64,000 bases of DNA from Schmidtea polychroa (Eukaryota). Below, piece by piece: positions 1-63,504 of this stretch. The position numbers and the translations under genes are program-made. Each line of letters opens with the position of its first letter. The first letter of the stretch is position 1. The notes under the pieces were generated by a model. The model was not told the DNA's origin. It was given only the letters and a program-made list of their open reading frames with translations, and made no database searches. Location of the stretch: the NCBI GenBank assembly GCA_044892525.1, contig CM097885.1, positions 8,930,001 through 8,994,000 on the forward strand, in the 5' to 3' direction.

Positions 1-637
<637 letters not shown>

Positions 638-13718: not shown

Positions 13719-17396
<3,678 letters not shown>

Positions 17397-26200: not shown

Positions 26201-28899
26201 TCATTATTTTAATATTTTATTAATATTTATTTATAATTGTTATTGCTATTATTTTTTTATTAATATTAATTATAGTATAAAGGACTTAATAATAATTATT
26301 AATAAAAATTCAATAGAAAAAGCAAAAACTGTCTGGGGGAGAAGAGGTGCAATATTTATTAATTATTCCTTTTTTACGTCAAGTTTGTCTGGAAATGCAA
26401 GAAACGACACCGCGTGAAATTTTAAAATTACTATAATTAATAATTATTAATATCGTATTAATTTACTATTTATTTTTTTGTTAATTTATAATCATCATTA
26501 GTTTTATTTTAATTATTTATTTATTATTATTTATTATTACAATTTAGATTATTTGTCACAAGCATTTTGCGTAAATAGCTGTTATGAATATTAATATTTG
26601 TTACCATAATTTTATTTATTATATCAATATTTTTTAATTATTATTATGTTATTAATATTTATTATTATTTTAATATTTTATTAATATTTATTATTATTAT
26701 TTTTTATAAATACAAACTTCAATTGAAAAGAAATCAGAGGTGAAAATTGAAAAGTTCTTATAATTTTATTAATTTTTTAATTATAGTATAAAGGACTTTT
26801 GAAAATATTAGGAACTTAAATATAATAATCATTATTAATAAAAATTCAATAGAAATAACAAAAACTGTCTGGGGGAGAAGAGGTGCAATATTTATTAATT
26901 ATTCCTTTTAATGTCAATTTTGTCTGGAAATGCAATTCTTGCAAAACCAAGTGCTCATTAAAAGAAACGACACCGCGTGAAATTTTAAAATTATTATAAT
27001 AATAAAAATATAAATAATAATAAATTATTTTTTTTATTTTAATTATTTATTTATTATTATAGTATCGATATTATCATAAACAATTTAGATTATTTGTCAC
27101 AAGCAATTTGCGTAAATAGCCGTTATACCAAAAATCGATCAATAACTCACCAACAGCCCGAGACATTTGTTGTAAATGTGTGAATTGATTGTTGTCGGTG
27201 AACTCTTGAACTTATCAATCATTATGAAGTAGACAAGGAGTCCTTGTTGCTCAACGAATTTCCTGCAAGCTGCTGTGCACTCATCGGTCAAATTCCACAA
27301 CGAACTGAGAGTGAATTTCAAAATGAAATCGAAAATCGGCTCTCCAGATTCCCGCAACCTCGGCCGGATCTTTGCGAGATACGATTTGCTATCGACCGAT
27401 TCGAGATCTGATTGAAGGACGCAACGGCGGCATATCAATCGCAAAAGGATTTGAAAGTTCAAATCATCATTGACCAGCTGTCGCAACTCAGATTTCGTCA
27501 GTTCCGATGCGATAACCGATATGATAATGACTCCAGCCTGATTGATGTTCTCGATATCGTAGAGCTGCATGCCTTTGAATATGAGCTGGCTCAGCTTGAG
27601 TTTGTCATAGATTGCGTTCTGGATGATGTAATCGTTACAGATGACGAGGAAAATGTTCACCACCAGCTGCTGGTTGATATCGGGCGTGTCGAGATAGATA
27701 ATCAATAATCGGACAATTTCCGACAGCTGGGAAATCGACCATTTCTCTGCATAGCTACCCTTGGTCAGATTGTACACCACAGCCGTTACTGCAATCAACC
27801 ATTCGTGTTTGTGCGGTTTGATGGTGCGCATGTGGCTGATTATTGTCGAATTGAGAGTTTCATTGAAGAACGGGGAGCTTTTCGTTTTGTCGAACAGCAA
27901 ATGAAGCGATGTCGTCAGATAGTGTTTGTGCTTGAGAGAATAAATAAGGCAGTTTAAGATAGTGATTTTTGTAAACGCACCAATGAATGTGATTTGGGGA
28001 TTTTCTTTGATGAATCTTTTCCATTCCGGGCTATTGGAAATCTGATGATTGGCGGAATCGGGATTGTAAATGAAATATTTCAGCTGAGTTGCTTTATTCA
28101 ACATTGTCAAAAGCGTTCTCGTTTTGATGTTGTTTTGATTGCCAGAAAAATCCAATAATCGAACGGATTTCAAAAATTTACTCGAAAGAATATCCGAATC
28201 ACTACCGATTTCTATTTTCTCCGGGTCGTTGTGAGATAAATCCAAATATCGCAATTTTGTCATGTTTTTCAGGATGGAAAGGATGTTGATAAAAGCTCGA
28301 GAATCTAACATGTGAATGTCTAAAAACTCCAGTCGATTTTCAATATATGAAAGACATGATAAATCGAGAACTGTTGTTTCGGAAATATTTAATCCAACCA
28401 ATGATTGGAATGATGTACATATTTGTTTCAAATGGTTTGAAGTGAGACCGGTTTTAGATAAATCCAAAAATTTCAAATTTGTTAACTGGGTTAAAAGTAT
28501 AAGAGGATATTGCTTTATGGCAACTTTGCGTAGTTTTAAATACTTTACTTTGTTTTTTGTGAAATCATTGAAATTTTCTAAAAAAACTTCCATTTCACAT
28601 GACGTAGATCGAGAAGAAAAAGACGATAAGTTAAACTGTTTTAAAAATTCATAATCTCCCATTACTGCAGAATCCAAAGTGATATTCGATATACTGGATA
28701 TAATTGGGGCAAAATATCCTAATAAATGCCGATAATTTTTTGTTAGTAATATTCTTTTCAAAAACTTTTGTGAAGCACGCTCTGGTAGGGTTACATTTTT
28801 AATGTATGCATAATATACTTCCAAATCATTTTCTAGCAATTGAAATGACAGGTTAAAAAACTTTTCTATGCACAAATCTTCTAAATTCCCGACAAGCAT
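20269..28899 (-). CDS. ZYG11: ZYG11-family CUL2 substrate receptor (LRR + ARM), multi-exon
   Basis: Large exon 28899-~27148 (LEDLCI, LRRs, AVVYNLTK, LKFTLSSLWNLTDECTAACRKFVEQQGL, KCLGLL). Then NNIAEEEECR (~25890-25823), IQMTYFAGGILSNL (~22627-22495), SWVTPNFLMASYRSFSPF...LLWALWAIRH (~22419-22266) and KRYAAIL (~20447-20269), collinear with ZYG11B. Confidence 0.88.
20505..21310. repeat. ~200-210-bp AT-rich tandem repeat (about 4 units) in a ZYG11 intron
   Basis: Anchor cctcgtttgt recurs at ~20508, 20707, 20917 and 21126. Confidence 0.85.
24721..24934. mobile_element. piggyBac-type MITE
   Basis: TTAA on both sides; TIR cc(t/c)tttctaagg / ccttagaaaggg; second copy at 55870-56096. Confidence 0.85.
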
Positions 28900-29809: not shown

Positions 29810-31748
29810 CAACGGTGGGCAAATGCGGCTCTTCGTTGAGTAAACTGCGGCTCATTGATAATTGAATTCTTGATAATCGAATTCGATTTTTTATTTTGAA
29901 ATTTTTCACTAAATGTTTTGAGAAAAAATTTTTTGTTGCAATTGTATTTTCATAAATGTCAAAAATTAACGAAACATTGTTTTTCATATTTTACTGCTTT
30001 TTAAAATTATTTTGTAGTAGGCGGCGCTTTGTTATAACAACGAGAGAGAAGAATCAAAAATAAATTTAGTGAATTTTGATTGGTTATTATTTTGTTTGTA
30101 CAAGATTGCGGTCGTTTGTATATTTTAGTATAGTTTTCTATTCGTGTTTTTTGAAAAATTTGGTAAGAAGATTTTTTTATGAAGCATTTTAAAATTTTAA
30201 ACTAATTAAAATTAAATTAATGTCTTTTTATTATTTTGTTTAAATTTCAGCCATATAGTTATTTAAATTTATTATTATAATGACATCAGAAAACATCAAA
30301 AAACGAAAATACAGACAAGAAAATAGAACTTTTCAAGAAGAATGGACAGAAAAGATTTTTTTTATTGACAATAATGGTAAATCGTTGTGTCTTATTTGTA
30401 AAGGTACAATTTCCAACTACAAAGTAACCAATTTACGTCGACACTATGAAGTACGTCATCCACACTTATCAATTCAATATCCACTCAATTCAAACTTGCG
30501 GACAGAAAAACTTAAGTCATTGCAATCAGGGCTTCAAGCCCAACAAGGACTATTATCTACTTTTAGTCGAGAAGATGACAGTGCCAACGAAGCTAGTTTT
30601 TTGATAGCTTGGAATATAGCTCGTGCTAAACGTCCATATGGAGAAGGTGAATTTATTAAGAGAAACTTGGAAGAAGTGATTAAAGTTTTGGATCCGCACA
30701 ACTCAAAATTACATAAATTGATCTCACGTATTCCTATTTCACGTCGTACAACTGAGCGTCGAATTGGCCAAATTAGCGAAAATGTTTAAAATAATTTGAT
30801 GTGTGATTTAAAAAATTGTACAGCATTCAGTTTAGCTCTCGACGAGTCTACTGACATTCAGGATGTTCCACAATTAGCCGTGGACATTATGGAACATTTG
30901 CAAACATTAAATTTGGCTTTACAAGGAAAAGAAAAGATAATTATTGATTTGTCACAAACGTTATTTAGTTTTGAAGCTAAACTTCGGCTTTTTGTGAACG
31001 ATCTTAGGTCGAAAATATTTAATCATTTTCCACGAATAAAAGCTAATATAATTGATATTACAGAAGAAAAAGTAAACGAATACAGTGAAAAATTGGAAGA
31101 ATTGCAAGCGGATTTCAAATGTAGGTTTCAAAATTTATAAATCTACATTTGCATTTTTTGTGAACCCATTTATTTGTGATATTATTGAAGATGGATTTCC
31201 AATTTCTGAAGTAATACTTGTTAAAAAAGCGGTTGGGGAATTGGAGTTATTAGATATGAAAGAGGACCAGGCTTTGCAAATGCACCATAAATCTACTTCT
31301 ATAGTTGAATTTTGGAAACTCGTACCAGAGGCAAAATATCCACACTTAAAACAAGCTGCTTGCCGTCTAATTTCAATTTTTGGTACAACATATTGCTGTG
31401 AATCTTTGTACTCCACAATGAAGTTCGTAAAGTCGAAATATCGTTCACAGTTGACCAATCAGCATCTTACAGAATTGCTGCGAACAGCTTTAACAAAGTA
31501 TACACCAAATTTCAAAAATTTGACCAAAAGTCTTCGTTAATTCAAGAAATTTTATTACTTTTTATTAATGGATTTTTATGTTTGTTACTTAATGTTTGAA
31601 ATAATTATTTTGTTTTTTTTTAATAGTGTTTAAGTCTCTTTAATCAAATTAATGAAATAAAAAAAAATATGTACTTTACTATGGTGGCTCTGTAAAAAAT
31701 AAATTTTCGGAAAATGGCTCTTATTGAACCCATGCGTGCCCACCCTTG
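29810..31748 (+). mobile_element. hAT DNA transposon (Buster/SPIN/GTF2IRD2-like), internally deleted
   Basis: TIRs caacggtgggca / tgcccacccttg; perfect 8-bp TSD ctatagaa (29802-29809 / 31749-31756). Confidence 0.95.
30280..31540 (+). pseudogene. hAT transposase with stop, frameshift and central deletion
   Basis: BED finger CLIC...LRRHY..RH; FSLALDESTD; FGTTYCCESLYSTMKFVKSKYRSQL. DVPQLA is joined directly to VDIMEHL, so the catalytic middle is missing. Confidence 0.9.
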
Positions 31749-32299: not shown

Positions 32300-33100
32300 C
32301 TGAGTGTCTTGATTTGTGTTCGGATTTTCGTAGTGATTATACAATTTTATTAATTGATTTTTGAAAATTGGATGAAGTTTATAAAAATAAAAATTGTGTG
32401 TTTTTAAATATCGCAGTATGTATTTATAATTTGTTGCTAAATTTTGCTTAATATTTAAATGATTAAAATTTTTCATAAATGTTTTTGTTATTAGCCACAT
32501 GCAACAAAGAAAGTAAAAATTTCTCTAACAAAGAAAAAAATTACTTGAAAATGCAGTGCCGAAAATTCGTGAATATAAAAAAAACATCGATATATTTACT
32601 GATTATAGTTATTTAAATACAATGTCAATTGAAAAGACATCAGAGGTGAAAATTCTAAAATGTTCTTATAATAAGACAGAAAAAGAAATTGTGGGACTTC
32701 ATTTTGCACTAGGGAAATTATGCGGAGAAATGCATGGATTGTATGTGGTGCCCCCATTTTATAGAAGTTTGCATATTTATCTATAAAATATTAAAAATTT
32801 ATATATTTATGTTAAATATTTATATTAAAAAATTTACTAAGAGAAAAAAAGGTTTGTTTAAATAATCAGAAACTAGAAACATGCGCACTTTTAAGAAGAA
32901 AAAGGAAAGGATGAAGCTCAACAATACAGAAGTATTCAGTCAGTATTGCAGCCAAATCACGATCACAATTCTATGATTAATAAATTTTTTATTTTATTAG
33001 TTACAATATTGTAATAGAATTTTAAAATCCAACGAAATATTACAAATAATGGAATGTTTAATAAGCTAAATATAATGGCAATTATTATAACTATTTTATG
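32300..33100 (+). repeat. ~800-bp interspersed repeat, inverted copy at ~49375-50152
   Basis: cagtattgcagccaaatcacgatcacaat (32941-) is the reverse complement of attgtgatcgtgatttggctgcaatactg (~49518-). Homology runs across the block; shorter fragments at ~6610-6735 and ~26718-26762. Confidence 0.85.
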
Positions 33101-33458: not shown

Positions 33459-34290
33459 TCAACACACACGTATTCTTGACACGTATTCAAACTGCAGATT
33501 GATTTTAGGAATAAAAGTTCTTATCAATAATGCTTCACATATCACACGCTCAAAACAATTATCAGAATTTTTTGATAAGATTTTAAAATTCGACATCACT
33601 AATTCTCTCATACAAACTTTATTATGATCCTTAATATTGGACACTCCCTTCGGTCGACAATTGTTCTTGAACTCGAGTACAGAGATGACAGGAAGTCTCT
33701 CCAATGTATGTGGCATTACACCAATTACATGTGAATCGATAAACGAGATCCGAACACAATCCAACCTGCGTTTGAGATTTATTAACAAACATACTACTTA
33801 CTTTGCATGATTTTGAAACAATTCTATAATTCAATTTACCAACCTGTTTACCAATCTTTCTTTAGAAATCTATCCTTCAGAATACGGCAATACCATCGTA
33901 TATTTTGGCTCATCTTGTTGGTTAGTATCAATATTCATATTCACTACATCATTCGACATATCAGTCAATTTACATTCATTCATACTACGATTCTTAGCAT
34001 TATTCATACATTTATCAACAATCTCCTTCAACATTAACAATAAAAACCGTTTTGATTAGCCATTCTTCACCAGTAATCCAACTAATTTATCTACACTTTT
34101 TACTGAATTTTTAAAAGTAGAAGATAAGCACCATGATCGATAAACCAATCCTTTCACCATATTTCTTTTATATTTAAATTCACAAAAACTCTCTAGGGTA
34201 GTATAGAGGCCGGTATCTGTTGGTTTTCTATAAATTTCTGTCTCATATTGTTCATCTTTAAATTTAATTAACAAATCAAGAAATGCTATG
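33459..34290 (-). mobile_element. Penelope-like retroelement 3' part (RT thumb + GIY-YIG endonuclease), degenerate
   Basis: FLDLLI...ETEIYRKPTDTGLY...LVKNG (PLE RT C-terminus); LVYRFTCNWCNATYIGETS.HL.TRVQE (GIY-YIG); CEALLIRTFIPKINLQ. Confidence 0.88.
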
Positions 34291-34527
34291 GATGTGATTA
34301 ATAATAATGTGATTAATATGAGTAAGATTGTTCTGCCTAATGAAGAGCTACGTATTTTAAAATATGGTCCTAACCATTGCATAAAAAATAGGATTGATGA
34401 AAATAAATTGCGTGCAAAAATCGAATGTGTTTATTATAATATATGTAAATCAAAGAAGGATGTTGATCTACTTACGATAAAAAGTATGCTGAGTGCAATT
34501 ACGATTGAGTATATTGTGTTGGGCTAG
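34288..34527 (+). mobile_element. Penelope-like N-terminal ORF fragment in inverted orientation
   Basis: VINMSKIVLPNEELRILKYGPNH resembles the PLE N-terminal motif VxNLSxxxLxxxExxxLxxGxxF. An apparent continuation GFVILDHDVYVKKVNEVL lies at ~36580-36660. Confidence 0.55.
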
Positions 34528-37149: not shown

Positions 37150-37597
37150 AGTAGATGGATGTGACACCGCCAGATCATGTCACCGCTAGATCACCTACCC
37201 CCCACCCCCCCCCCCCCCGACAGAAAAATTTTTTTAAAGATTTTTTTTTCAAGGTCAAATTTTTAACAAAGACAATGACTCATCAAGGTCATTGAAACAA
37301 AGAATTTTTTTTTGTTTTAATTATCGATTATTATTAAGTGATCTAGCGGTGACATACCATTTGACTTCCCAGAACTTTTTCAATTTTCAAAATTATTTAA
37401 ATATTTATACATCATTTTGAAGGCCAGGCAAAGATCTATCTTTTGAGCCATAGAAATAATTTTTATCATCAGTGGTACAAAAGTTATTAATTTTTTAGTC
37501 AGAGACTGATTTATGGTTAAAATTTTCAAAAATGTTCAAAGTTTACTAAGTAATTTGCGGGTGATTTGTCAATCATCCAATCAGGTACGACTTTGTT
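37150..37597 (+). repeat. Left TIR (~450 bp), followed by an (ATT)n tract to 37803
   Basis: Reverse complement matches 48402-49059 with few mismatches. Confidence 0.95.
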
Positions 37598-37679
37598 TAT
37601 CATTATTATTGGGAAAGATATTAACGCCCGCGCGGAATATTTTCAAAAATATTATTATTATTTTCAAAGTCTTAATCAA

Positions 37680-37803
<124 letters not shown>

Positions 37804-37884
37804 GGGTAATGCTCGCAAGGGTACTGGTCACGCTCAACAAGTCACAAGGGTATTATTAAACAAATCAACAAAACATACATTTAT

Positions 37885-38384
37885 TTAAACAATAAAATAA
37901 TGTAAAATTAACAAAGGTAAACTAAATATTGATGTACTACTATTCGCAGCAATATTGTTTGAAATTGGTAACGTCGAATTGATTTTCAGATATTCTATTG
38001 ATCCTTTGATTGTTTGAATTTCTCCTAATAATAATTCGATCATTTTAACAAATAATCATGCTTCTTATCAATAATTTTCATATTCTTTTTATTTTCAACA
38101 ATAGAGTTATTGAAAACTTCAATATGATCAATCAATTTAATTTTTATATTTTGTATATATGCAAATGATAGTTCATAACTGTTTTCTAAATTCTCCAATC
38201 TTTGAGATATTCTTTTTCCTGGATGCTTTGACCATTTTGGTTTGTCAAGAATATATAAAATATCCATCAACTTGGCTGTATTCGGACAAACACATATTGA
38301 TTTATTAAAAGACTCCACTGTTATTGTTGTATTGTGTGAGCACACACTCGTTATAATAATTAGCAATATGAATATAGTTTTCAT
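37885..38384 (-). CDS. Element accessory gene: signal peptide, coiled-coil-like middle, hydrophobic C-tail (one frameshift near 38043)
   Basis: MKTIFILLIIITSVCS signal-like N-terminus. Adding one A in an A-run continues MIELLLGEIQTIKGSIEYL...SIFSLPLLILHYFIV* (stop 37885-37887). Confidence 0.55.
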
Positions 38385-38489
38385 GGTGTATCAAATCAAA
38401 ACCTTTCTTTTACATTTATAGTCTATCAACCAATCAAAATCATACGGTATTAGTATAAATAAAACATCATATTTTAAATTATTGTAGAA

Positions 38490-39005
38490 ATGTCTCATTT
38501 TATGGAAAATCTTTTAAGCGAACTTATCAATAAGAATATTATGGAAAGCCTCAGTTTCCTGGTCGATCGGACCGAAAAGATTATAGAAGGAAATCATATT
38601 GATTATGAGGATGTGCTCAATTCCGAATGCCTCGAAACGAAAAAATTTTATTTTCATAGGATTTTTAACTGTCTATGCGACGAAGAGATGAAGTGGACCC
38701 GAATACTAGTAGGGTTCGCTTATATGAAGATCATAATCGAAAGAAGTTTATGGGACTCTGAACATTATTATCAGTGGTCTCAAGAAGTAATACTTTTATT
38801 AATATTTATTTTATTAATATTTATTTTCTAGATAATCAAATCAAAGTTTCAGCCATGGATTGAAGCCAATGGCGGATGGGGCGTGCTGAATCAACTCGCC
38901 AGAAATGCGAAGGAAATAGATCAACAGAAAATCAAATTTAAAAACTATTTAAAACTTGCAACAGGTGTTGCTATTTTGTATGTTTTATGCAGGTTTTTTA
39001 AATAA
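38490..39005 (+). CDS. Bcl-2 family protein (2 exons: 38490-38786, 38832-39005; 156 aa)
   Basis: BH1-like EMKWTRILVGFAY; 45-nt GT-AG intron; BH2 QPWIEANGGW; C-terminal membrane anchor LATGVAILYVLC followed by RFFK*. Confidence 0.85.
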
Positions 39006-39082
39006 AAATTAATATAGTTATTTTGTTTGATTTTTAAATAAAATTTTAAATAAATTTACAAACACTAATTAACTAAAATTTA

Positions 39083-39513
39083 TTAATTAACACATTCACA
39101 GTCATCATCTCCACATTTCATTATATTTTCAACGACATGATCAATACAATCATTCGTAATATTATCTTTAGGTTCATCTTTAGGTTCCTCTATAGGTTCC
39201 TCTACAGGTTCATCTATAGGTTCATCTATAGGTTCATAGATTTCCTCATCAATTTCTTGAGTTTCTTCCTCATCAATTTCTTGAGTTTCTTCCTCATCAA
39301 TTTCTTGAGTTTCTTCCTCATCATCAAATCCTGTATCTTGACTCTCAACTATCCAGCCGATATTTAAGGCATTTGTAATAGATAATATGTCCTCAATTTT
39401 CACACCAGCTATTTCTGCTAACTTTTCCAACAAAAAGTTGATTACAAATTCTAAATAATAAATAATTCGGTAATTAATTAATCATGTTAACCTTTTTCTG
39501 CAGTCATTTTCAT
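39083..39513 (-). CDS. Element accessory gene: acidic repeat protein (2 exons)
   Basis: Exon 1 39513-39492 (MKMTAEK), 41-nt GT-AG intron 39491-39451, then an open frame with (EEETQEID)x3, EPxDE repeats and a Cys-containing tail. Confidence 0.7.
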
Positions 39514-39640
39514 CACTTTAAAACTATATTATAAGTTTTTTTATAGATTTTCTTTGTTAAATTTGCATGTCATTTGCATTTATGTTGCAATTAATAAAGA
39601 GAAAAAACAAATATGACTAATACATTTATTAAATATAACA

Positions 39641-40051
39641 TTAAAATATTTGTGAAAGTCTAGCAGACATTATTTTCCAAATAGGAGAATATACATCATT
39701 ATTATCAACTTTATATCCCTGGATTGCAATTGTTATATACCAATTTTCATTTTCTTTGAAACTGATTTCATCAAAAGCATCATAAAATCTTGCATATCTA
39801 TTGTTGAACCATGCATGTTGATTACACGACAGATTCGAATCTATCCGTTTAAAAACATCATCAATAGTTTTGACATCAATCATTGAAAGCGTGCCGGATA
39901 AGAATTGAAATTTAGTTGGAATTAGCTTGACTGGTGCAACCAATTTCATATTGATTTCTTCTTTCAAAAAATACATTTTGTAGTTGTGGAACATTTGAAC
40001 TGGTTGTACCATTTCTTTAGGTTTTTCGGTGCTTGAAATTTTCTTGGTCAT
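39641..40051 (-). CDS. Element accessory gene, 136 aa; possible OB-fold ssDNA-binding protein
   Basis: Intact ORF with upstream CCAAT and TATA. C-terminal YITIAIQGYKV....YSPIWKIMS has the alternating beta-strand/aromatic pattern of T7-gp2.5-like viral SSBs (tentative). Confidence 0.55.
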   Translation of the reverse strand: MTKKISSTEKPKEMVQPVQMFHNYKMYFLKEEINMKLVAPVKLIPTKFQFLSGTLSMIDVKTIDDVFKRIDSNLSCNQHAWFNNRYARFYDAFDEISFKENENWYITIAIQGYKVDNNDVYSPIWKIMSARLSQIF

Positions 40052-40524
40052 CGTGAATAATGAATAAATTTAAATGTTACAGGGTTTTTATACCTTTGAC
40101 TCATGCCTATCAACCAATCAGATTATAGCATGTCTTTGTTTAAATTGCATTCAAAATGCATTGATGTTGCATTGTCACATGTTTTGTTATACGTTCTATT
40201 TACAGATTTATTATTTATGTGTTTTATTATTAATGTTTAAATTATTACATGTTTTGTTATATGTTCTATTTACAGATTTATTATTAATGTGTTTCATTAT
40301 TATTAATTTTTTTTACTATTATTTCTATTATTATTATTACTATTCATATTTCTATTATTACTATTATTATTACTATTCATATTTCTATTATTACTATTAT
40401 TATTATTATTTCTATTTCTATTATTACTATTATTATTATTATTACTATTACTATTATTATTATTTATTACTATTATTTATTACTATTTCAAATATAAAAA
40501 AACACAACAGATACAAAAATACAT

Positions 40525-40912
40525 TTATTCATATCCAAGATCTACAATCCGGGAGTAGTGAAACCTTCTCAGAGTTTTCACTAACTCCCATTCGACATAT
40601 CGCCAATATCGATCGGCACAGCATGAGCATCCGATGATGCATTGGTACTCCGGCTCCATTTGTTTCATAGTTCTGTTGATTTTGACATCCCATAAAAATT
40701 GGTGGAATACCTCCATGATTCTTATTTGGGTTGAATAAAAAATCAAATCAGGTATGATTTCCGGTTCCCGATCCTTGATTACTTCAGCAATTTGCGGATA
40801 ATAATATTTTATCCTATTGATCATTATTTCTAAATATTTTTCTAAAATAATAAATATAAAAAAATGTGAAAATAAAAATTTTAAATTTACCATAATCGTC
40901 AATATCTTTCAT
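40525..40912 (-). CDS. Element accessory gene of unknown function (2 exons, CxxxCxCC motif)
   Basis: Exon 1 40912-40891 (MKDIDDY), 49-nt GT-AG intron 40890-40842, in-frame exon 2 EKYLEIMINRIK...QCIIGCSCCADRYW. Confidence 0.65.
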
Positions 40913-41014
40913 GAGATTCGCGGCGCTCGGAATTTTGTACATAGTGAAATAAATGAATCCTAAACAAAAAACCGTTTGTTTAAATCAATCAATAACCAAT
41001 TAGAAATTAACCAA

Positions 41015-41452
41015 TTAGAAATCGACCAATGAAATTATCTCATTTCGAACATTGTCAACAAATTCTCTATACTCCAAATTTCTCAACCCCAACATGACAA
41101 CCTTTCCACTAGCAAACACGTTGACACATATAGGGTTATATTTTAATAGTCTTAGTGCCGGAAACAATTCCGGTTCAAACATACAATCACATTTTTTCGA
41201 CATGTTATATAGATTGATACTATGTCCCATATCCATAGTAACGGTAATTGATTGGATTATAATATTATTTATTCGATATTGTAATTTATTAATATCCAAA
41301 GGTTACTTACATCCCATGATTCTGCATTTACCAGTCTTGAAAAATATTATCGGATATTTCCCACTTCTATCGATAATTTGCTGGGGTTTCCCTGGTGGGA
41401 ACCTCATATTCGATACATCAAAATTTCCTCGATAATTTATATTTGCTAACAT
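41015..41452 (-). pseudogene. TATA-binding-protein-like gene with one in-frame stop (41303-41305)
   Basis: Repeat 1 YPIIFFKTGKCRIMGCK; repeat 2 IQSITVTMD...FEPELFPALRL...VNVFASGKVVMLG (cf. TBP YEPELFPGL...LIFVSGKVVLTG). Confidence 0.85.
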
Positions 41453-41551
41453 TATTAAATCATTTATGAAAATTATTCTTTATATACAAATTGAGCACGA
41501 GTTCATTAAATCATCGAATATAAACAAATACACATATATAAAATTTTTGAA

Positions 41552-42178
41552 ATGGAATTAAGAAATGATGCAGTATACCAAATCGTTGGTCCGAGTGGTA
41601 GCGGAAAAACATTATTTGTTTGTAAAATTACTAAAATCAAATTTATTCAAATCAAAATTCAACAGGATTTATTGGCATAGGGTGCTGATGAAGAACATGG
41701 ATTAACTCAATCAAGTTTCTGTAAATTAAAAAACATGAAAATTGTAAAGGGATTCGATAAAAACTGGTCCAGCCGATTAAAGAAAGGTGATGTCATTATT
41801 ATCGATGATTTGTATCAAGAAGCTAATAAAGAAAAAGATTTTAATAATTTATTTACAAAGATCAGCAGACATGTCGGTGTAACAGTTATTTTCATAACAC
41901 AAAATCTATTTCATCAAGGTGGGGCACATCGAACACGTAATTTAAATATACAATATTTAGTTATTTTCAAGAATCCTAGAGATGCAACAGTGATTGATTT
42001 TCTTGCACGTCAAGCATACCCTAACAATCGTAATTTTCTTATCAGTGCATTTCAAGATGCTACAAAAATACCTCATGGATATATATTTCTTGATTTCACA
42101 CAACAATGTCCCGATGATTTACGAGTAAAAACAGATATTTTCAACCCAAAAGGTGCCATGGTTTATAAACAAAGTTGA
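41552..42178 (+). pseudogene. A32/FtsK-like genome-packaging ATPase with compensating indels
   Basis: ATG 41552; Walker A GPSGSGKT; Walker B VIIIDD; FTKISRH..VTVIFITQNLF; YLVIFKNPRD; PHGYIFLD. A +1/-1 indel pair between ~41625 and 41682 leaves an in-frame TAG. Confidence 0.92.
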
Positions 42179-42196
42179 AAACCTCTATGAATAATA

Positions 42197-42723
42197 ATGT
42201 TTCTAAAAGCAAGGGTGAAAAATATTAGGAAATTAAGAAAAAGTATTAGAAAGAGTATTAAAGTTCCAAAAGTTCCACCAACAACTAGTTATACACCGTC
42301 TAAAAAACTTGTAACTGAAAATTTCTCTGCAATGAATCTTATTTCGAAAAATCCTAAACCTAAACGTAAAACTCGTAAAACCCGTAAAACCGGTAAAAAA
42401 GTAGTTAAAAATCATCGCAGTTTTCCATTTTTTAATGCATTGTTAAAGGCCCCGAGTATGAAAAGAATGAATATATTGCAATCATTCCCAAATTTTGTTG
42501 TCGATGATTTACTCAATATTATACTTAAGTAGTCAAAGGCAAAATTAAAATCAGTAAATCAAAAAAGCATTTATTGAGCAAACATAGGAAACCATTGTTA
42601 TCTTTAGTAAATAATAAAAATCGTAAGCAAATGAGGAAAATTATATATAAACAACAAGGTGGATTTATTGGTGCATTGATACCTCTGGCATTATCATTAT
42701 TAGGTGGAGTTACACAAACATAA
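42197..42723 (+). pseudogene. Basic core protein with an adenovirus pX-like C-terminus (frameshift ~42528)
   Basis: K/R-rich N-terminus. After restoring one A the frame continues VVKGKIKIS...KQQGGFIGALIPLALSLLGG*, an adenain-type GG|F site followed by a hydrophobic helix. Confidence 0.7.
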
Positions 42724-42784
42724 ACAATGGGTGCTAATCCTTCATTGCCCGACATTAAATTTAATTTTAAATCTTCTTGTTGTA

Positions 42785-43172
42785 ATGGAGAAGATTTGGA
42801 CGAACCCAGAAGACGAAGCCGGTTTCGGTGGAGTGGCAAAATTAAAGAAAAGAGTTCCGAATTCGAAAAAAGAAACCCAGAAGTGGTTATCAGATCAGCT
42901 TGCGTACAGTTTGAACAAACCAATGCGGAAAAGATTTCCAACAAGAGCGTATAAAACATTTGGTATTGACGATTTATGGCAAATGGATTTGATGGAGATG
43001 ATACCTTATTCGAAAATTAGCAATGGGAATAAATATATTTTAACATGTATTAATGTATAGAGCAGGTTTGCACGAGCAATACCAGTCAAGGCAAAATCTG
43101 CAGAAGTAATGTCCAAGGCAATTAATATTTTATTTAAAGATGGACATCCTAATAACTTGCAAACAGATTTAG

Positions 43173-43228
<56 letters not shown>

Positions 43229-43858
43229 TTAGGTAAAGAATTCTACAATAGTAAAGTTAAGCAAATCCTCGATAAACTGAAAATAAATCACTACTCGGTA
43301 CATTCTCAATACAAAGCTGCCCATGTTGAAAGATTTAATCGAACATTGAGAGATAGATTAAAGAAATTGTTCGTGCATCAAGGTAATAAAAAATGGGTAA
43401 ATGCTTTACCGAAAATAATAACAAGTTATAATCATTCATCACATCGAGGACTGAATGGATTGAGACCGGTTGATATTACATCAAAAACACCAGTATCTAA
43501 GAAATCTGTAAAAATTGCAAAACCTAAATATAAAGTCGGTGACCATGTTAGAATTAGTAAAATTAGTGCATCACCATTTATTAAAAATTTTGATACAAAT
43601 TGGAGTGATGAAGTCTTTGTAATTTCAAAAATAAATACTAAACAGAATCCTGTAATGTATGTAATCAAAGACAATGATAATAATATTGTACAGGGGAAAT
43701 TTTATGAGCAGGAATTACAAGTCATTCCTCCCCCAAAAGTATTTAGAATTCAAAAAATATTGAAAACTAAAAAGGTCGGTAAGGATAAACAATACTATAT
43801 CAAATGGCATGGTTATCGAAACCCGTCATGGATATCAGCAAAAGACCTAGTAAAGTGA
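42785..43858 (+). pseudogene. Retroviral-type (RVE) integrase with C-terminal chromodomain-like region; one in-frame stop and a 60-nt intron
   Basis: AGFGGVAKL; WQMD; TAG at 43058-43060; QTDLG|KEFYN; KAAHVERFNRTL; YNHSSHR; YKVGDHVRI; NWSDEVF; FYEQELQ; YYIKWHGY..SWI. Confidence 0.95.
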
Positions 43859-44872
43859 ATTTTTATACTATTTTGCCGAGCAATAGTTGTCCATTAATTC
43901 ATCCAGAAAATCAAGCAAGCAAATTCATCATCGAACTCCAAAACCCTATCTATTTGGATAATGACTGGGAAGTTGCTCTGTTGGATTTTACATTTGTATA
44001 CAATTTATTCCCAATCTATAGCAAATCAGTTATTGAATATAATAAGAAAGTAGCAGTAACGGAATATATTAGTGTTCTTATCGATAAAGATAGTTATAAC
44101 TTGACGAGTTCATCGAAATCAAGGAAACCTATAATTTATGATGATGGTCAATATTTATACATGAATTGCTTGAATAAGCCATTCGAAATTATATTTTCTA
44201 CAGTGGCTGATGCTAAACGTCTTGGATTTTCTGATTTACGTAATGTATTTAATGATACAGTCAAAAAAAAATCTCTCTACACTTCCAAAAACTAATAATT
44301 TAGTGGAATTCAAATTTAAGCTATCATACATTGAAATAACTGAGCATGCATATACTTTTAAAGATAATTTATATATTACAGACCTCGAACAATTACAATC
44401 TTATTTAGGTGAGAATTGTAGCGATATTTTAACAGTTTTTGAGCTTCAAAAAGATAAAGTATTTAGATTTAGTATAAATTCTAATCTTAGTCAAGTTAAA
44501 TTTGACTCAAATTTGACAAAAACATTAGGATTGACTAAACCAGTATGTACACAAAATGAACAAATTTGTGAAGGAACAAACAAACCGAAAATCCTTAAAC
44601 ATCATCAGCAAATGTTCATTTACAGTAATATCGTGGAACCAGTTATTGTTGGCGATTCTAGTGTTCCTTTAATGATATCTATATGGATTGAAAAACATGA
44701 TCAAGATGAAGTTGTACAAATCAATGTAGAAAATCCCATGTATTTACCTGTTTCAACATCTTGTATAAACAATATAGAAATAAATATAAGAGATGATTCT
44801 GATCAATTAATCGAATTTCCAAAAGGTTCAAAAACTCATTTGACATTACATTTTCGTAAAATAAATGGCTAA
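43855..44872 (+). pseudogene. Minor capsid protein (penton), frameshift in an A-run at ~44264-44272
   Basis: FYTILPSNS...WEVAL at the N-terminus; MFIYSNIVEPVIVGD...PMYLPV...IEINIRD...LTLHFRK at the C-terminus. The expected start appears as GTG overlapping the integrase stop. Confidence 0.9.
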
Positions 44873-45233
44873 TTCTGATATTATTAGTATGTATAGTGGT
44901 AGCCAATCTGGTGGTGAATTACCATATTTTATTGGTAAACAGTACGGATCAGGATGGTTGAGAACAATTGGAAGATTTGCCCTGCCTATTCTTAAACGTA
45001 TTGGTAGTTTTGGTATGAAAACTGCAAAAGATGTTATTATGAATGAACAGAAAATATTACCATCTCTAAAATCAAATGCTTTAGCTGAATTAGGGAAAGT
45101 TTTACCCGGGGTTGCAGGTATGTTTCAAAAAGAAAAACCTCCAGCTCCAGCTCATGCTCCAAAACGTAAAAGACATGGAATATCACGTATAAACAAACGA
45201 ATGAAAGGCCATGGAACTATATTTGCAAAATGA
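44865..45233 (+). CDS. Conserved Polinton virion/core protein (QxGG, QxGxG + amphipathic helix)
   Basis: QSGGELPYFIGKQYGSGWLRTIGRFALPILKRIG and a basic tail; lies between penton and hexon. Confidence 0.75.
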   Translation: MANSDIISMYSGSQSGGELPYFIGKQYGSGWLRTIGRFALPILKRIGSFGMKTAKDVIMNEQKILPSLKSNALAELGKVLPGVAGMFQKEKPPAPAHAPKRKRHGISRINKRMKGHGTIFAK

Positions 45234-46450
45234 TTTGTGGTAAATCTGAATTATGTATATTTGATAGACCATCGCTCCAGGCTGTAATAGAATTTGGGGC
45301 ATTTGAGGAAGTTTTTCCTATGAATTCAATTACCGATAGTAGAAATGATATCGTGTTTTATATTAATGGTTCGCAAACCGAATATTTAGATTTGAACGAT
45401 ACTTTATTGACTGTTCAGATTAAGGTTGTAGATAAAGATAGAAAAGCTTTGGATGCCAATGCAGATGTAATACCGAACAATTTCCTGTTTCATACTCTTT
45501 TTAAAGATGCAATGTTGGGATTTAATAATATCAAGATTGAGGGCGGAAATAATACATTCATTCACAAGGCATTAATAGAAACTATTTTAAATTACAATTC
45601 CGATACTAAAAATACATGTCTTACTCCTATGGGTTATGGCAGTGATGATGAAAGAAAAAAGTGGGTAAAAGGCTCAAAGGTTTTCACCATGTGCTCATCA
45701 TTACAACTTGATTTTATGGATCAACCAAAATATTTACTACCGGGAGTTAATGTACATATTAGACTGAAAAGGTCTGATTCTGCATTATCTCTTACTAGTG
45801 CAACTACTACACCAATATGTCAATTAGTTGATGCAAAATTATTGGTGAGAAGAGTTCGAGTAGACCCCTCAGTATTAGCAGGTCATCAATTGGGTCTTAA
45901 TTCAAAACATGCAATTTATCCATTAAAAACAAAGGAAATTGTACAATTTGCTATTGCTAAAGGTGCTTCATCATTCTATAAAGAACAAATATTTGGTGAC
46001 AGAAGAATGCCTAATTTTATTCTGGTAACATTTCAAAGTGAAGCACAATATAATGGATCATATACTGCGTCCACCTCAATTTTCAAAAACTTTGGTGTTA
46101 CTTCATTGACTTTGTCGAAAAATACTGATTATAGAGAAACATATATTCAAGATTTCGAGAATGATAATTACTGTGCGACATATATGCAGAGTATTGTTAG
46201 AAATCTGGGTTATTTAGATAAAAATTTGAATTGTGGAATAACTCTAGAAGATTTTAAAAGCAAATACCCATTTTTTACATTAGTTTTAGCCCCTGATTTT
46301 GATTTAAATCAAAGTCAATTACCTCAAAATGGAAATTTACGACTGGATATAAAGTTTGCAAAAGCTATTACTGAACCAGTACATGTTATAATATATGGAG
46401 TATTTGAAAATGAAGTTCAAATTACTGCAAATAGAACAGTGTTAGTATAA
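45230..46450 (+). CDS. Major capsid protein (double jelly-roll hexon), intact 406 aa
   Basis: CGKSELCIF...EYLDLNDTLL...NNFLFHTLF...QPKYLLPGVNVHIRLKRS...AIYPL...GNLRLDIKFAKA, typical of Polinton MCP. Confidence 0.92.
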   Translation: MICGKSELCIFDRPSLQAVIEFGAFEEVFPMNSITDSRNDIVFYINGSQTEYLDLNDTLLTVQIKVVDKDRKALDANADVIPNNFLFHTLFKDAMLGFNNIKIEGGNNTFIHKALIETILNYNSDTKNTCLTPMGYGSDDERKKWVKGSKVFTMCSSLQLDFMDQPKYLLPGVNVHIRLKRSDSALSLTSATTTPICQLVDAKLLVRRVRVDPSVLAGHQLGLNSKHAIYPLKTKEIVQFAIAKGASSFYKEQIFGDRRMPNFILVTFQSEAQYNGSYTASTSIFKNFGVTSLTLSKNTDYRETYIQDFENDNYCATYMQSIVRNLGYLDKNLNCGITLEDFKSKYPFFTLVLAPDFDLNQSQLPQNGNLRLDIKFAKAITEPVHVIIYGVFENEVQITANRTVLV

Positions 46451-46477
46451 ATGTATATTGAAACATAAAAAGTTGTC

Positions 46478-46862
46478 ATGGAGTAAGTTGTTTTTTATAC
46501 TCTGGATTTATTTAAGTAGTTCTGTTCAGGTCAATAAAATCGGAAAACAGATATTGGGAAATGAATTTGTTTGAGTTTTTCCTCTTGATAAAATTCCATA
46601 TTTGAGCAATAATCAAGCAATAATCGTCAATACTCAATCGTCTCATCTTGGTGGAGAACATTGGATAGCTATATATGTGAAACCTGGTAATATATTCGTG
46701 TTCGATCCTATGGGTTTTTATTACCCGGCTTTGTTGATATCAAAACTGCAAACAATGGGGAAACCTATTGTGTATAATAAAATTATGTTTCAAAATCCTT
46801 TGACCAAAACATGTGGTCAACATTGTTTAGCTTGGTTATTGTACAAAAAATCTGATGTTTAA
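46478..46862 (+). pseudogene. Adenain-like cysteine maturation protease; probable 37-nt intron and one in-frame TGA
   Basis: ATG GA|gtaagt...tag|T gives MDSVQV; FV*VFP (TGA 46572-46574 where G is expected); IVNT...GEHWIA; VFDPMG; FQ....TCGQHC (H-D-Q-C catalytic set). Confidence 0.9.
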
Positions 46863-47295
46863 TAAATTTGATGTTTAATAAATGTATCCTTTCCTTTGTT
46901 GTTGTGATTAATATTATTATTTTAATATTATTATTATTTTTAATTAATATTATTATTATTTCGAAAAATATTATTATTTTTAATTAATTTTATTATTATT
47001 CATATAAATATTATTAATTCGAGATAAAGACTACCTATGCCTGAAGCATGCACAGTGCAAGTTAACAAAGGCATGACTAACAAAGACAGTCACATGTAAT
47101 TTCAGAGTGATTTACATGTATGCGTGTGATTGGTTGAGAGAGTAAAATATTCAGTGTATATGCGTGTGTGTCTATATTCTGATTGGCTGGGACAGGAAAA
47201 TATTCATTCTCTTTATAAACATTGACAAATCTAAAATTTGTCACAATTATTTTAAAATTTTCAAAAATTTTCAACAATTTTCAACAATTTTCAAA

Positions 47296-47965
47296 ATGGA
47301 CAAAAATAATATTTTAAGAAGCATGATGGCTTGCGATAATGGTATATTATTTATTTTTATTTATTTTTTATATATTTATTTGTAGATGATTTATGGTACC
47401 AGGTGACCGAAAACGAGAATGGATTTAATTTGAATTGCACCTATGGTAATTTTATTTTTTTTTTATTTATTAATATTATTATTATTTAGATGTTATAATG
47501 TTGAGTGACGAAGAAGACGAAATAATAATTATTAGCGATGAAGAGGAATCACCAATTATTAATCATCACGACTTATCAAGTAAATTATTATTATTTTTAT
47601 TATTTAATTTAAAAAAACTGTTTTAGGAAATAGTCAAAGAGAAAATTCCCCCAATTTTGTTGGAGAAACAGAAAATTTAATAGGTGCAATCATTGAAGAT
47701 ACACGTAAATTTTTATTATTATTATATGTAATTTTTAAAAATTGATTTAGGAAGTTCAATTATTTTGGAGGACATATATGATCCTATTATGGATGATCTA
47801 TATGCTCCCATTAATGTGGATGTCAAGGAAATTGCTCCAGAGACAAAATTATTTAATACCCCTATTCGGGATGCTTCTATTCATGAGGTTTTTGATGCCC
47901 CCACTTTAACCGGGGATGTCCTCTCTGAGAATGATACAGATTCAGATTCTGAATCTAAATGTTAG
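47296..47965 (+). CDS. Element accessory gene: 5-exon acidic protein (162 aa) with tandem SIM-like motifs
   Basis: Exons 47296-47341, 47386-47445, 47490-47579, 47627-47704, 47751-47965. Four 44-47-nt GT-AG phase-1 introns splice to a stop-free frame containing DVIMLSDEEDEIIIISDEEE. Confidence 0.8.
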
Positions 47966-48207
47966 TATTTTTTATTTTATTTATTTTATAAATATTTATT
48001 TTAATAATTTCTTAAATTAAAAATAACATTCTGTAGAATATTTAAATTATTTTAAACATAAATTTTATATGAAACATGATGAAAATTATATGAAACATGA
48101 TGAAAATTATATGAAACATGATGAAAATTATATGAAACATGATGAAGTTTATATGAAATTAATGATTCTAACTAATCTAGAGAATGTTATTTTTATTTAA
48201 GTTTAGA

Positions 48208-48288
<81 letters not shown>

Positions 48289-48307
48289 TTTAATAATAAT
48301 AATAATA

Positions 48308-48401
<94 letters not shown>

Positions 48402-48402
<1 letters not shown>

Positions 48403-49059
48403 CAAAGTCGTACCTGATTGGATGATTGACAAATCACCCGCAAATTACTTAGTAAATTTTGAACATTTTTGAAAATTTTAACCATAAATCAGTCTCTGAC
48501 TAAAAAATTAATAACTTTTGTACCACTGATGATAAAAATTATTTCTATGGCTTAAAAGATAGATTTTCGTCTGGCCTTCAAATTGATGTATAATTATTTA
48601 AATAATTTTGAAAATTGAAAAGGTTCTGGGAAGTCAAAAGGTATGTCACCGCTAGATCACTTAATAATATTTTTGAAAAATAATAATAATTTTAACCAAA
48701 TTAGTGTCTGACTAAAAAATTAATAACTTTTGTACCACTGATGATAAAAATTATTTCTATGGCTCAAAAGATAGATTTTCGCCCGGCCTTCAAAATGATG
48801 TATAAATATTTAAATAATTTTGAAAATTGAAAAAGTTCTGGGAAGTCAAAAGGTATGTCACCGCTAGATCACTTAATAATAATAATCGATAATTAAAACA
48901 AAAAAAAAATCTTTGTTTCAATGACCTCGATGAGTCATTGTCTTTGTTAAAAATTTGACCTTGAAAAAAAAATTTCTTAAAAATTTTTTCCCCCCCCGGG
49001 GGGGGGGGGGGTAGGTGATCTAGCGGTGACATGATCTGGCGGTGACACATCCATCTACT
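48402..49059 (-). repeat. Right TIR with internal ~210-bp tandem duplication, preceded by (AAT)n 48208-48401
   Basis: Reverse complement of the left TIR; the block gactaaaaaattaataac...caccgctagatcacttaataat occurs twice (~48478-48690, ~48691-48880). Confidence 0.95.
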
Positions 49060-50154
49060 TAAATAAGATATAAAATAACTTTTTGTAAGTTTTCTAAAAT
49101 AAAATCATTCTGAATATATCCGTAATATTTGTCTAAACTTCTTATTTATTAAACTGTATCATTTTACATTAATTCTGAAACTGAATTTTAAATTTTAACT
49201 TTGTTTCCGTCACTAATCAGAATTTTTGTTTACTTATTCTGAGAAATCCAATTCATTTTGATAAATACCACTAAATCACGAAACTCAACTTTTATTTCCA
49301 CAATTTGTTAGTTGAAACCTTTTGTCAAGAGTTTTCAAATGTGTATTTTATTTTGCTCATATGCAATATTTTTATAAAATAGTTTTATCAATTGCGATTA
49401 TATTTAGCTTATTAAACATTCCATTATTTGTAATAATATTTTTTTAATATTTATTTGGCTTTGAAAATTCTATTACAATATTGTAACTAATAAAATAAAA
49501 ATTTTAATTATTATAGCATTGTGATCGTGATTTGGCTGCAATACTGACTGGAAACTTCTATCTGTATTGTTGATAAGAGTTTTGTTGTTGAGCTTCATCA
49601 TTTTCGTTTTCTTCTTAAAAGTGCGCATGTTTCTAGTTTCTGATTATTTAAACAATCCTTTTTTTCTCTTAGTAAATTTTTAATATAAATATTTAACATA
49701 AATATATAAATTTTTAATATAATATATAAAACTTCTATAAAATGGGCGCACTACATACAATCCATGCATTTCAATGCATCATTTCCCTAGTGCAAAATGA
49801 AGTCCCACGATGTCTTTTTCTGTCTTATTATAACATTTTAGAATTTTCACCTCTGATTACTTTTCAATTGACATTGTATTTATTAAAAAATTGACTATGA
49901 ATTAGTAATATTTCGATATTCACGAATTTTCGGCACTGCCTTTTCAAGTGATTTTTGTTCTTGGTTAGAGAAATCTTTACTTTCTATTTAATCATTTGAA
50001 TATTAAAGTAAATTTACTAACAAACTATAAATACATAATGCAATATTTAAAAAGACACAACTTTTATTTTTATAAACTTCATCCAATTTATAAAATCAAT
50101 TAATTAAATTTTATATTCACAACGAAAGTCCGAACATAAATCAAAACACTCATA

Positions 50155-50270
50155 AGTAGGTAGTTAGTGCATTACGGCAGCAATGACCCCCGGGAGGGGG
50201 GGGTTCTGCTGCTGTAGACATTTTCTGCTTTTTTGATTACATAATTGCTGCCGTAATGCCCAATGTTATT
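50155..50270 (+). mobile_element. Candidate left terminus of a more divergent AGTAG-starting element
   Basis: AGTAG at 50155 truncates the 800-bp repeat copy. Perfect 16-bp inverted repeat 50169-50184 / 50244-50259 with an adjacent C/G tract, the same layout as the Polinton TIRs. Confidence 0.45.
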
Positions 50271-51258: not shown

Positions 51259-51854
51259 ATTTTAAATTAAAATTTATTTAATGGTGAGTCACCAATAAAT
51301 GGTGAACACATCAAGCACCATTATACAAACTGTATGTCAGGGGTTTCTGGTGTAGTCACACTTACTCCTGGTAGTCAGGCGAAAAAATTCCGATTGAGGC
51401 CGGTTGGTAATACTCGAAACTTTGTTTCCTAAATAAATCTCTTGAATCGGAACAGAAGGAATATATATATATATATATATAAACAACATCACATGAGCAC
51501 ACAAACAAGTAGACAAATGAGAAGAGCTCAATGAAGATGACAATAAAAGCCCAGAAAATTAACAATTTCGTGGAAGATGGATGCCTTCAGAAATGATAAT
51601 CGAAATGAACAAAATGGAGAAAGTACTAAAAGTTGTTAGATTGCTTAAATTAATTTATAAATGAATGTATATATGACTCTAATTACCAGTATTGTTCTCC
51701 CTTATTGAGAATATGCTTGTAGTCCCTAGAATCTCGTTTCAATTTGACTTATTCTCGAAAGCGTGTACAGGCGTCACAAATATACTTTAAAAGTTAATAT
51801 ATGCAAATAATATTAGATAAAATGATGATTTTTTAGTAGCGGCATTTATTAAAT

Positions 51855-52011
51855 TTTAAACAATTAAATGATAATTTAAGCCTGTTTCTGCGAATAATAT
51901 ATTTTATACAAATGAAAACATTTTCGACTATAAGATAGTTGAAAATGTTTTCATTTGTATTACATATATTATTCGCAGCAAAAGGCTTAAGTTATCATTT
52001 AATTGTTTAAA
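51855..52011. repeat. ~157-bp near-perfect palindrome (foldback/MITE-like)
   Basis: ~77-bp arms tttaaacaattaaatgataa...cattttcgactat / atagttgaaaatg...ttatcatttaattgtttaaa around a 3-nt loop. Confidence 0.9.
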
Positions 52012-52021
52012 CATTAAATAA

Positions 52022-60532: not shown

Positions 60533-63504
<2,972 letters not shown>

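Follow-up and report, generated by a model that had tools for sequence, protein, structure and literature searches.

A putative (ATT)18 intron in the integrase gene of a decayed Maverick/Polinton element from Schmidtea polychroa

Does a stretch of almost pure ATT repeat that splits the catalytic motif of a transposon integrase represent an intron caught at birth, or an older intron that slippage later overwrote? The question is raised by a locus in a 64,000-nucleotide stretch of Schmidtea polychroa DNA (assembly GCA_044892525.1, contig CM097885.1, positions 8,930,001 to 8,994,000), hereafter the window. An initial annotation had presented the locus as a snapshot of intron birth, with overwriting by ATT slippage as its alternative. 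We find that the alternative fits best: the insert is probably an inherited, older spliceosomal intron, the interior of which has become pure ATT in this copy. Birth of the intron in this copy is unlikely, since a 98% identical sibling and relatives at 72-74% identity appear to be interrupted at the same codon, and not by pure ATT.

The insert and the element that carries it

The integrase gene lies on the forward strand. Its first exon (42785..43172) extends from the N-terminus to the QTD motif, and its second (43233..43858) holds the ERFNRT motif and a chromodomain-like C-terminus. Between them lies an inferred phase-1 GT-AG intron of 60 nt (43173..43232), composed of GT, 18 perfect ATT units (43175-43228) and TTAG, in agreement with the GT start and TTTTAG end originally described. 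Excision restores the motif as had been proposed; the cut, placed at the time between Gly and Lys, falls instead inside the Gly codon (G|GT) that follows the QTD motif. With the insert removed, the motifs are spaced as in 116 of the 120 best homologues; the region is missing from the remaining four. The Asp of the LQTD motif is presumably the second catalytic residue of the enzyme. The window reading frame itself gave weak rve_3 and Chromo matches, and a near homologue (P0001), whose alignment with solved integrases spans the LQTD motif, matched rve with an E-value of 3.6e-12, as expected of the DDE integrase of a Maverick.

Several features point to a spliceosomal intron. Use of the GT donor and YAG acceptor restores conserved integrase coding sequence, as would be expected of a U2-type intron, and the 60-nt length compares with 44-47 nt for other introns of the element and 40-55 nt for candidate introns of a host gene, the host genome being that of an AT-rich eukaryote with short introns. 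Seven pure runs of at least 10 ATT units occur in the window, and the run at 43175-43228 is the only one directly flanked by GT and TTAG, a coincidence that exceeds chance given the window-wide run count. Against the intron reading, the donor is GTATTA, while most other introns here begin with GTAAAT or GTAATT. The direct repeat noted in the initial annotation was confirmed: TTTAGGTA occurs at 43168..43175 (+), across the exon end and donor, and at 43228..43235 (+), across the acceptor and the first bases of exon 2; the window contains no further copy. This repeat is partly to be expected, because GT and AG already set some of its letters, because TTTAGGTA already stands at the empty site in 5 of 22 related loci without the insert, a redundant set, and because two of the five other short introns of the element end in ATTTAG and one in TTTTAG. 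Two other accounts of the tract were discarded. RNA structure was rejected when the tract folded worse than 198 of 200 shuffles, and telomere-repeat addition, prompted by TTAGG, was dropped as the filler is ATT.

The gene resides in an 11.9-kb element (37150..49059) that is a decayed, non-autonomous Maverick/Polinton derivative. It has the ends AGTAG...CTACT and is flanked by TAGATA and TAAATA, a 6-bp target site duplication (5-8 bp being the expected range) with five of six positions matching and one mismatch. The terminal inverted repeats measure about 650-850 bp, within the expected 100-1500 bp, and are 93-97% identical outside their ATT tracts. The left repeat (37150..37803, +) contains 85 nt of mixed sequence (37596-37680) followed by (ATT)41; the right repeat (48208..49059, -) has an internal duplication and is nearly pure ATT opposite that mixed stretch, its tract retaining interruptions. 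The duplication is a tandem one of about 210 bp at 48434-48881, its copies 90% identical. A third, more diverged copy of the terminal repeat (77-81%) occupies window positions 1-490 and probably marks the end of a related element, the rest of which lies outside the window. In each copy (37578-37803, 48208-48420 and 1-230) CAG|GTA precedes the ATT tract, an arrangement resembling a splice donor that opens onto a repeat.

The order of genes in the element is the order in related loci. A packaging ATPase (41510..42178, +) gave a weak Pox_A32 match below the cut-off, is 68-72% identical to syntenic ATPases and is interrupted at codon 57 of these coordinates by a stop; an adenain-like protease is represented by its C-terminal piece (46575..46862, +; Peptidase_C5, E 3.7e-6, above the cut-off), so that both genes expected of the family were found. 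An open reading frame of 406 codons (45230..46450, +), 53-56% identical to the syntenic frame of related loci, is one that we take to be the major capsid protein from its position and size; capsid-sized frames are present at syntenic positions, and a search of 45230..46450 for a jelly-roll gave no Pfam match. Also present is a TBP-like gene (41018..41476, -; PF00352, E 1.7e-11), head-to-head with the ATPase and with homologues in two related loci, L009 and L022; in L009 it shares the strand of the integrase. One stop interrupts each of the ATPase, TBP-like and integrase genes. No polymerase motif was found in six frames, and no tblastn match to the frames of 1,143-1,148 amino acids in L009 and L022, which were treated as polymerases from position alone and for which Pfam gave Endonuclease_7.

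Two cargo genes of the element are also split. A Bcl-2-like gene of 156 codons in two exons (38490..39005, +) has a 45-nt GT-AG intron at 38787-38831; its first exon scores 0.93 to Atlas Bcl-2 clusters, a score of weak recognition value, and a BH2-like motif lies past the intron. An acidic reading frame (47296..47955, +) contains four phase-1 GT-AG introns of 44-47 nt (starting at 47342, 47446, 47580 and 47705); with these skipped it is open over 159 codons, and unskipped it meets 19 stops. It belongs to none of the families tested and sits where related loci place a reading frame between the protease and the large polymerase-like gene.

The surrounding window contains host genes for an AAA/Vps4_C ATPase (13719-16102, -), presumably katanin-like, a ZER1-like protein (27139-28899, -) and a SNF2-family helicase (62419-63329, +), together with a TRAF/MATH-domain piece of a host gene (1652-2372, +). 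Other repeats include a broken hAT transposase (30259-31540, +), two reading-frame pieces that gave no Pfam match and that in our view resemble a Penelope-type element, and a 209-bp tandem array and a 176-bp palindrome (the other-repeat ranges being 33459-34430 on the reverse strand, 20507-21309 and 51846-52021). A dispersed repeat is also present, its two copies lying in inverted orientation (32301-33099 with 49374-50155).

Interrupted relatives and the empty site

Evidence on the age of the insert comes from related proteins, the introns of siblings being deduced from predicted proteins, a view in which acceptors and lengths do not appear. A search with the N-terminal piece of the integrase returned 14 short proteins. 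In four of them the integrase frame is lost no more than three codons from the site. This clustering at a site named beforehand has a binomial p of 2e-4, which becomes 2e-3 when one lineage is merged (3 of 13) and 0.026 when P0125, which ends before the Gly, is also set aside (2 of 12).

One of these proteins, P0135, is 97.7% identical to exon 1 of the window (three residue differences in 130 codons); beyond QTDLG it has 17 more residues, most of them from AT-rich codons, before a stop. Its tail has Ile at six of its first eight positions and Ile-Leu at its end, as does the window tract, which suggests common descent of the two inserts. It differs from a pure ATT frame by at least 14 changes in 51 nt, or 11 if a register shift is allowed, as against the three residue differences in the 130 codons of the exon. 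A jump of P0135 to another part of the element was rejected, as its tail matches nothing else in the window, and a frameshift origin of the sibling tails was likewise rejected, no shifted frame of exon 2 fitting the P0135 tail (best 5 of 18). Three relatives with 72-74% identity are interrupted at the same codon: P0123 and P0136, which are 93.7% identical to each other and come from different sources, share the ending QTDLG-K-I-I-I-stop, and that of P0124 is QTDLG-N-stop. If their Gly codon is GGT, we infer that these tails need DNA starting GT-AA at the same base. Two C-terminal halves, P0074 and P0082, run to the normal integrase C-terminus and lie on contigs as long as, and from the same source as, those of P0123 and P0124, respectively; the pairing rests on equal contig size. 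At the protein level, then, the closest relatives hold an interruption that a newly born intron would not share with them, and its sequence is not pure ATT, in line with the ordinary-sequence intron that the initial annotation had named as evidence against recent origin.

The two proteins of more than 90% identity are both altered at the site, and a close sibling free of the insert was not found. In the second of the two, the 98% sibling P0121, the donor codon is followed in frame by the final 14 residues of the protein, likely through a deletion via short microhomology. P0176 (54% identical) ends QTDLGK, for which an intron of independent origin, a nonsense mutation or the end of its contig could account; it was excluded from the intron count, as was P0125. 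No state was assigned to P0025, a chimeric gene model in which a Prp19-like N-terminus is fused to an integrase C-terminus starting near the site and which groups with the interrupted clade.

Phylogenetic trees were used to count gains. P0123, P0136 and P0124 formed a starred clade (98/96; tree on 50 of 166 rows), and the window copy and P0135 formed a separate one (trees on 36 of 110 and on 50 of 166 rows). The two interrupted groups were neighbours, not sisters, in two-part trees (31 rows; 29-30 rows). The best tree implies two changes and 13% of bootstrap trees imply one; a single clade uniting both groups was not rejected (p-AU 0.16 and 0.21). P0176 falls firmly elsewhere (p-AU 1e-22 against one clade; 50 of 166 rows).

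The insert was absent from all 22 readable loci among 26 metagenome loci, a partly redundant set that includes no member of an interrupted lineage. The four loci excluded were L016, L024 and L025, which start past the site, and L026, which is only 31% identical. At the empty site, TTTAGGTA was present in 5 of 22, AGGT in 9 and AGG in 18; in some of this insert-free DNA a proto-splice site, TTTAG|GTA, is thus already in place just past the QTD motif, and the AG|GT site postulated in the initial annotation finds its counterpart in relatives, the insert behaving like a spliceosomal intron. No interruption was seen at the site among 146 further distant representatives (137 with the continuous motif, six with a continuous variant and three without the motif, one of which stops just short of it). 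Besides these, 202 proteins were examined: 184 are continuous, seven diverge at the site and 11 are without the motif, in collections whose gene callers do not splice, which biases full-length matches toward intron-free genes. Scans of viral contigs found no relative. Since homologues, metagenome loci and distant representatives are continuous at the site, the intron-free state appears to be the general one and may include a ready proto-splice site. As most relatives are without the insert and some have an empty TTTAG|GTA, gain of the intron at a proto-splice site would have happened in one Maverick lineage or in a few.

Origin of the ATT interior

The pure repeat calls for its own explanation. 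The other five short introns of the element are 44-47 nt long, are 91-95% A+T and contain 6-8 ATT words each, with a longest pure run of 1-4 units; they are proto-microsatellites. The 85 mixed bases of the left terminal repeat correspond to nearly pure ATT in the right repeat and in the copy at the start of the window, a difference which indicates that mixed and pure ATT have been exchanged, in either direction, between homologous stretches of the element. The same swap lends support to purification of the insert, and the five other short GT-AG introns of the element, with candidates of 40 and 55 nt in the katanin-like host gene, argue for inheritance of an intron. A further (ATT)18 run lies upstream of the large exon of that host gene (16503-16556). 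Counting against purification, some 21 nt of mixed sequence would have to give way to ATT in the span of about 1% divergence, a strong event.

We propose that a host-type spliceosomal intron was passed down within the Maverick family. The starting point would be an intron-free ancestor with TTTAG|GTA past QTD, as seen in related DNA. An ancestral element would then have gained a short AT-rich insert through a staggered break or small duplication, leaving a donor and an acceptor that the host spliceosome could excise exactly. The intron would have been inherited and have diverged in the 98% sibling and the 72-74% clade, as the proteins suggest and as we infer for the DNA. Finally, on the short branch to this copy, slippage of the ATT-rich 5' part and loss of the mixed middle would have purified the interior to (ATT)18, keeping donor, acceptor and a length near that of short host introns; a length divisible by three would have arisen by chance. 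In intact members splicing would be needed for integrase, and retention would yield a truncated protein.

The initial annotation had correctly described the unspliced frame as open with about 20 extra residues (18 Ile, Leu and Gly), and had suggested that splicing might switch integrase activity through this poly-Ile segment. The suggestion is left unsupported by the related tails, all four of which reach a stop within 1-17 codons, by the absence of any six-Ile run from 348 proteins, and by an in-frame stop in exon 1 at 43058-43060, about 38 codons upstream of the insert, that had been missed earlier. In-frame read-through is consequently a trait of one allele, and, given the upstream stop, retention in this copy is without consequence.

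Other histories were weighed against inheritance. Independent insertions at a break-prone proto-splice site could have filled it in parallel, with (ATT)18 and its 8-bp direct repeat a fresh product of repair or slippage that has no relation to what fills the site in P0135 or in the P0123 clade. The perfect direct repeat, the pure tract, the deletion in P0121 with its left end at the same codon and the placement of the interrupted groups apart in the best tree all suit such a history, as would P0176, an independent case if it has an intron and otherwise explicable by a nonsense change or contig end. Precedent exists in Daphnia, where the available text of PMC4202315 describes 43 of 90 new introns as parallel gains. 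The ATT-like start and Ile-Leu end that the window copy shares with P0135, and the alteration of both close siblings found, speak against it, and we regard parallel gain as fairly unlikely; even if it is wrong for the family, it may hold between lineages. A bolder form makes the proto-splice site by the second catalytic Asp a hot spot at which several Maverick lineages independently gained introns and kept them, with host splicing gating integration and (ATT)18 serving as a whole intron body. This we consider decidedly unlikely. If it were true, retention would give an N-terminal product without the catalytic Glu, a gating as in the P element, and a microsatellite alone could form an entire intron body in this host.

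The remaining alternatives concern the reality of the tract or of its splicing. An old and genuine intron could have acquired its pure interior through misassembly or polishing of a low-complexity stretch, in keeping with mixed sequence at the site in the 98% sibling and with the frequency of long pure ATT in the assembly (549 of 64,000 bases in runs of at least 10 units). An artefact of this kind should hardly have spared the imperfect ATT stretches of the five other introns or the interrupted tract of the right terminal repeat, A/T trinucleotide repeats are genuine in a planarian genome according to the available part of PMC10558129, and we give it a very slim chance. Alternatively, the segment could be no intron at all, being an unspliced insertion into a dead copy, such as a retroelement's bare repeat tail flanked by an 8-bp target duplication, its GT-AG ends mimicked by an AG|GT target. 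A short duplication does flank a simple repeat, and the copy is decayed in three of its genes. Such an insertion leaves unaccounted for the breaks at the same codon in a diverged clade with open C-terminal halves, and a chance target is improbable when the 1,014 coding bases of the integrase contain four AGGT sites and one TTTAGGT. We judge it highly improbable.

Comparison with known systems and implications

The element shares inverted repeats, a 6-bp duplication, an integrase with rve and chromodomain, a packaging ATPase, an adenain-like protease and a capsid-sized reading frame with Mavericks/Polintons of the animal adintovirus type as described in the available portion of PMC10748475; it differs in its 11.9-kb length and in that no polymerase was found. 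Bcl-2 cargo has been reported in adintoviruses (PMC8502044, in part), to be compared with the Bcl-2-like gene here. Gain at AGGT through tandem duplication, transposon insertion or double-strand-break repair is a standard model of intron origin in the sections of PMC3443670 available, which also place flanking repeats of at least 5 bp at 26% of old Drosophila introns, so that such repeats are no proof of recent gain. The present site resembles that model in its duplicated AG|GT word, exact frame restoration and empty site in relatives. Its interior differs, being a pure triplet repeat, neither duplicated exon nor recognisable transposon, and seems to be secondary.

Introns inside mobile elements have parallels. 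Ginger1 transposons carry integrase-type DDE transposase genes with 1-4 inherited GT-AG introns (PMC2836005, available text); they are simple cut-and-paste elements without virus-like genes, and the likeness lies in the presence and inheritance of introns. Maverick-like proviruses of dinoflagellates also contain introns, which in the part of PMC11957031 available are introners, copies of intron-making transposons, whereas the intron here is not repeated elsewhere and differs between lineages. In the Drosophila P element, retention of IVS3 gives a truncated transposase product (available part of PMC7776569), and sibling tails with stops would also give a truncated product. This is an analogy only: regulated splicing, a silencer and a repressor are features of the P element, and truncation here is predicted from sequence. 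Any effect of retention would, by that analogy, act through a truncated product. Outside subscription journals, Repbase and supplements, we found no publication describing an intron in a Maverick integrase or an intron made purely of microsatellite.

Introns in Maverick core genes are unusual: intact vertebrate Mavericks at least are described as having genes without introns (PMC8097293, in the text available), in contrast to the integrase and two cargo genes split here. An inherited intron in the integrase core, with five others, would make the element dependent on host nuclear splicing, and the integrase intron may offer the host a point of control. The site would also provide a compact test case for intron origin, in which an empty proto-splice site, filled alleles and a microsatellite-purified allele can be compared among copies.
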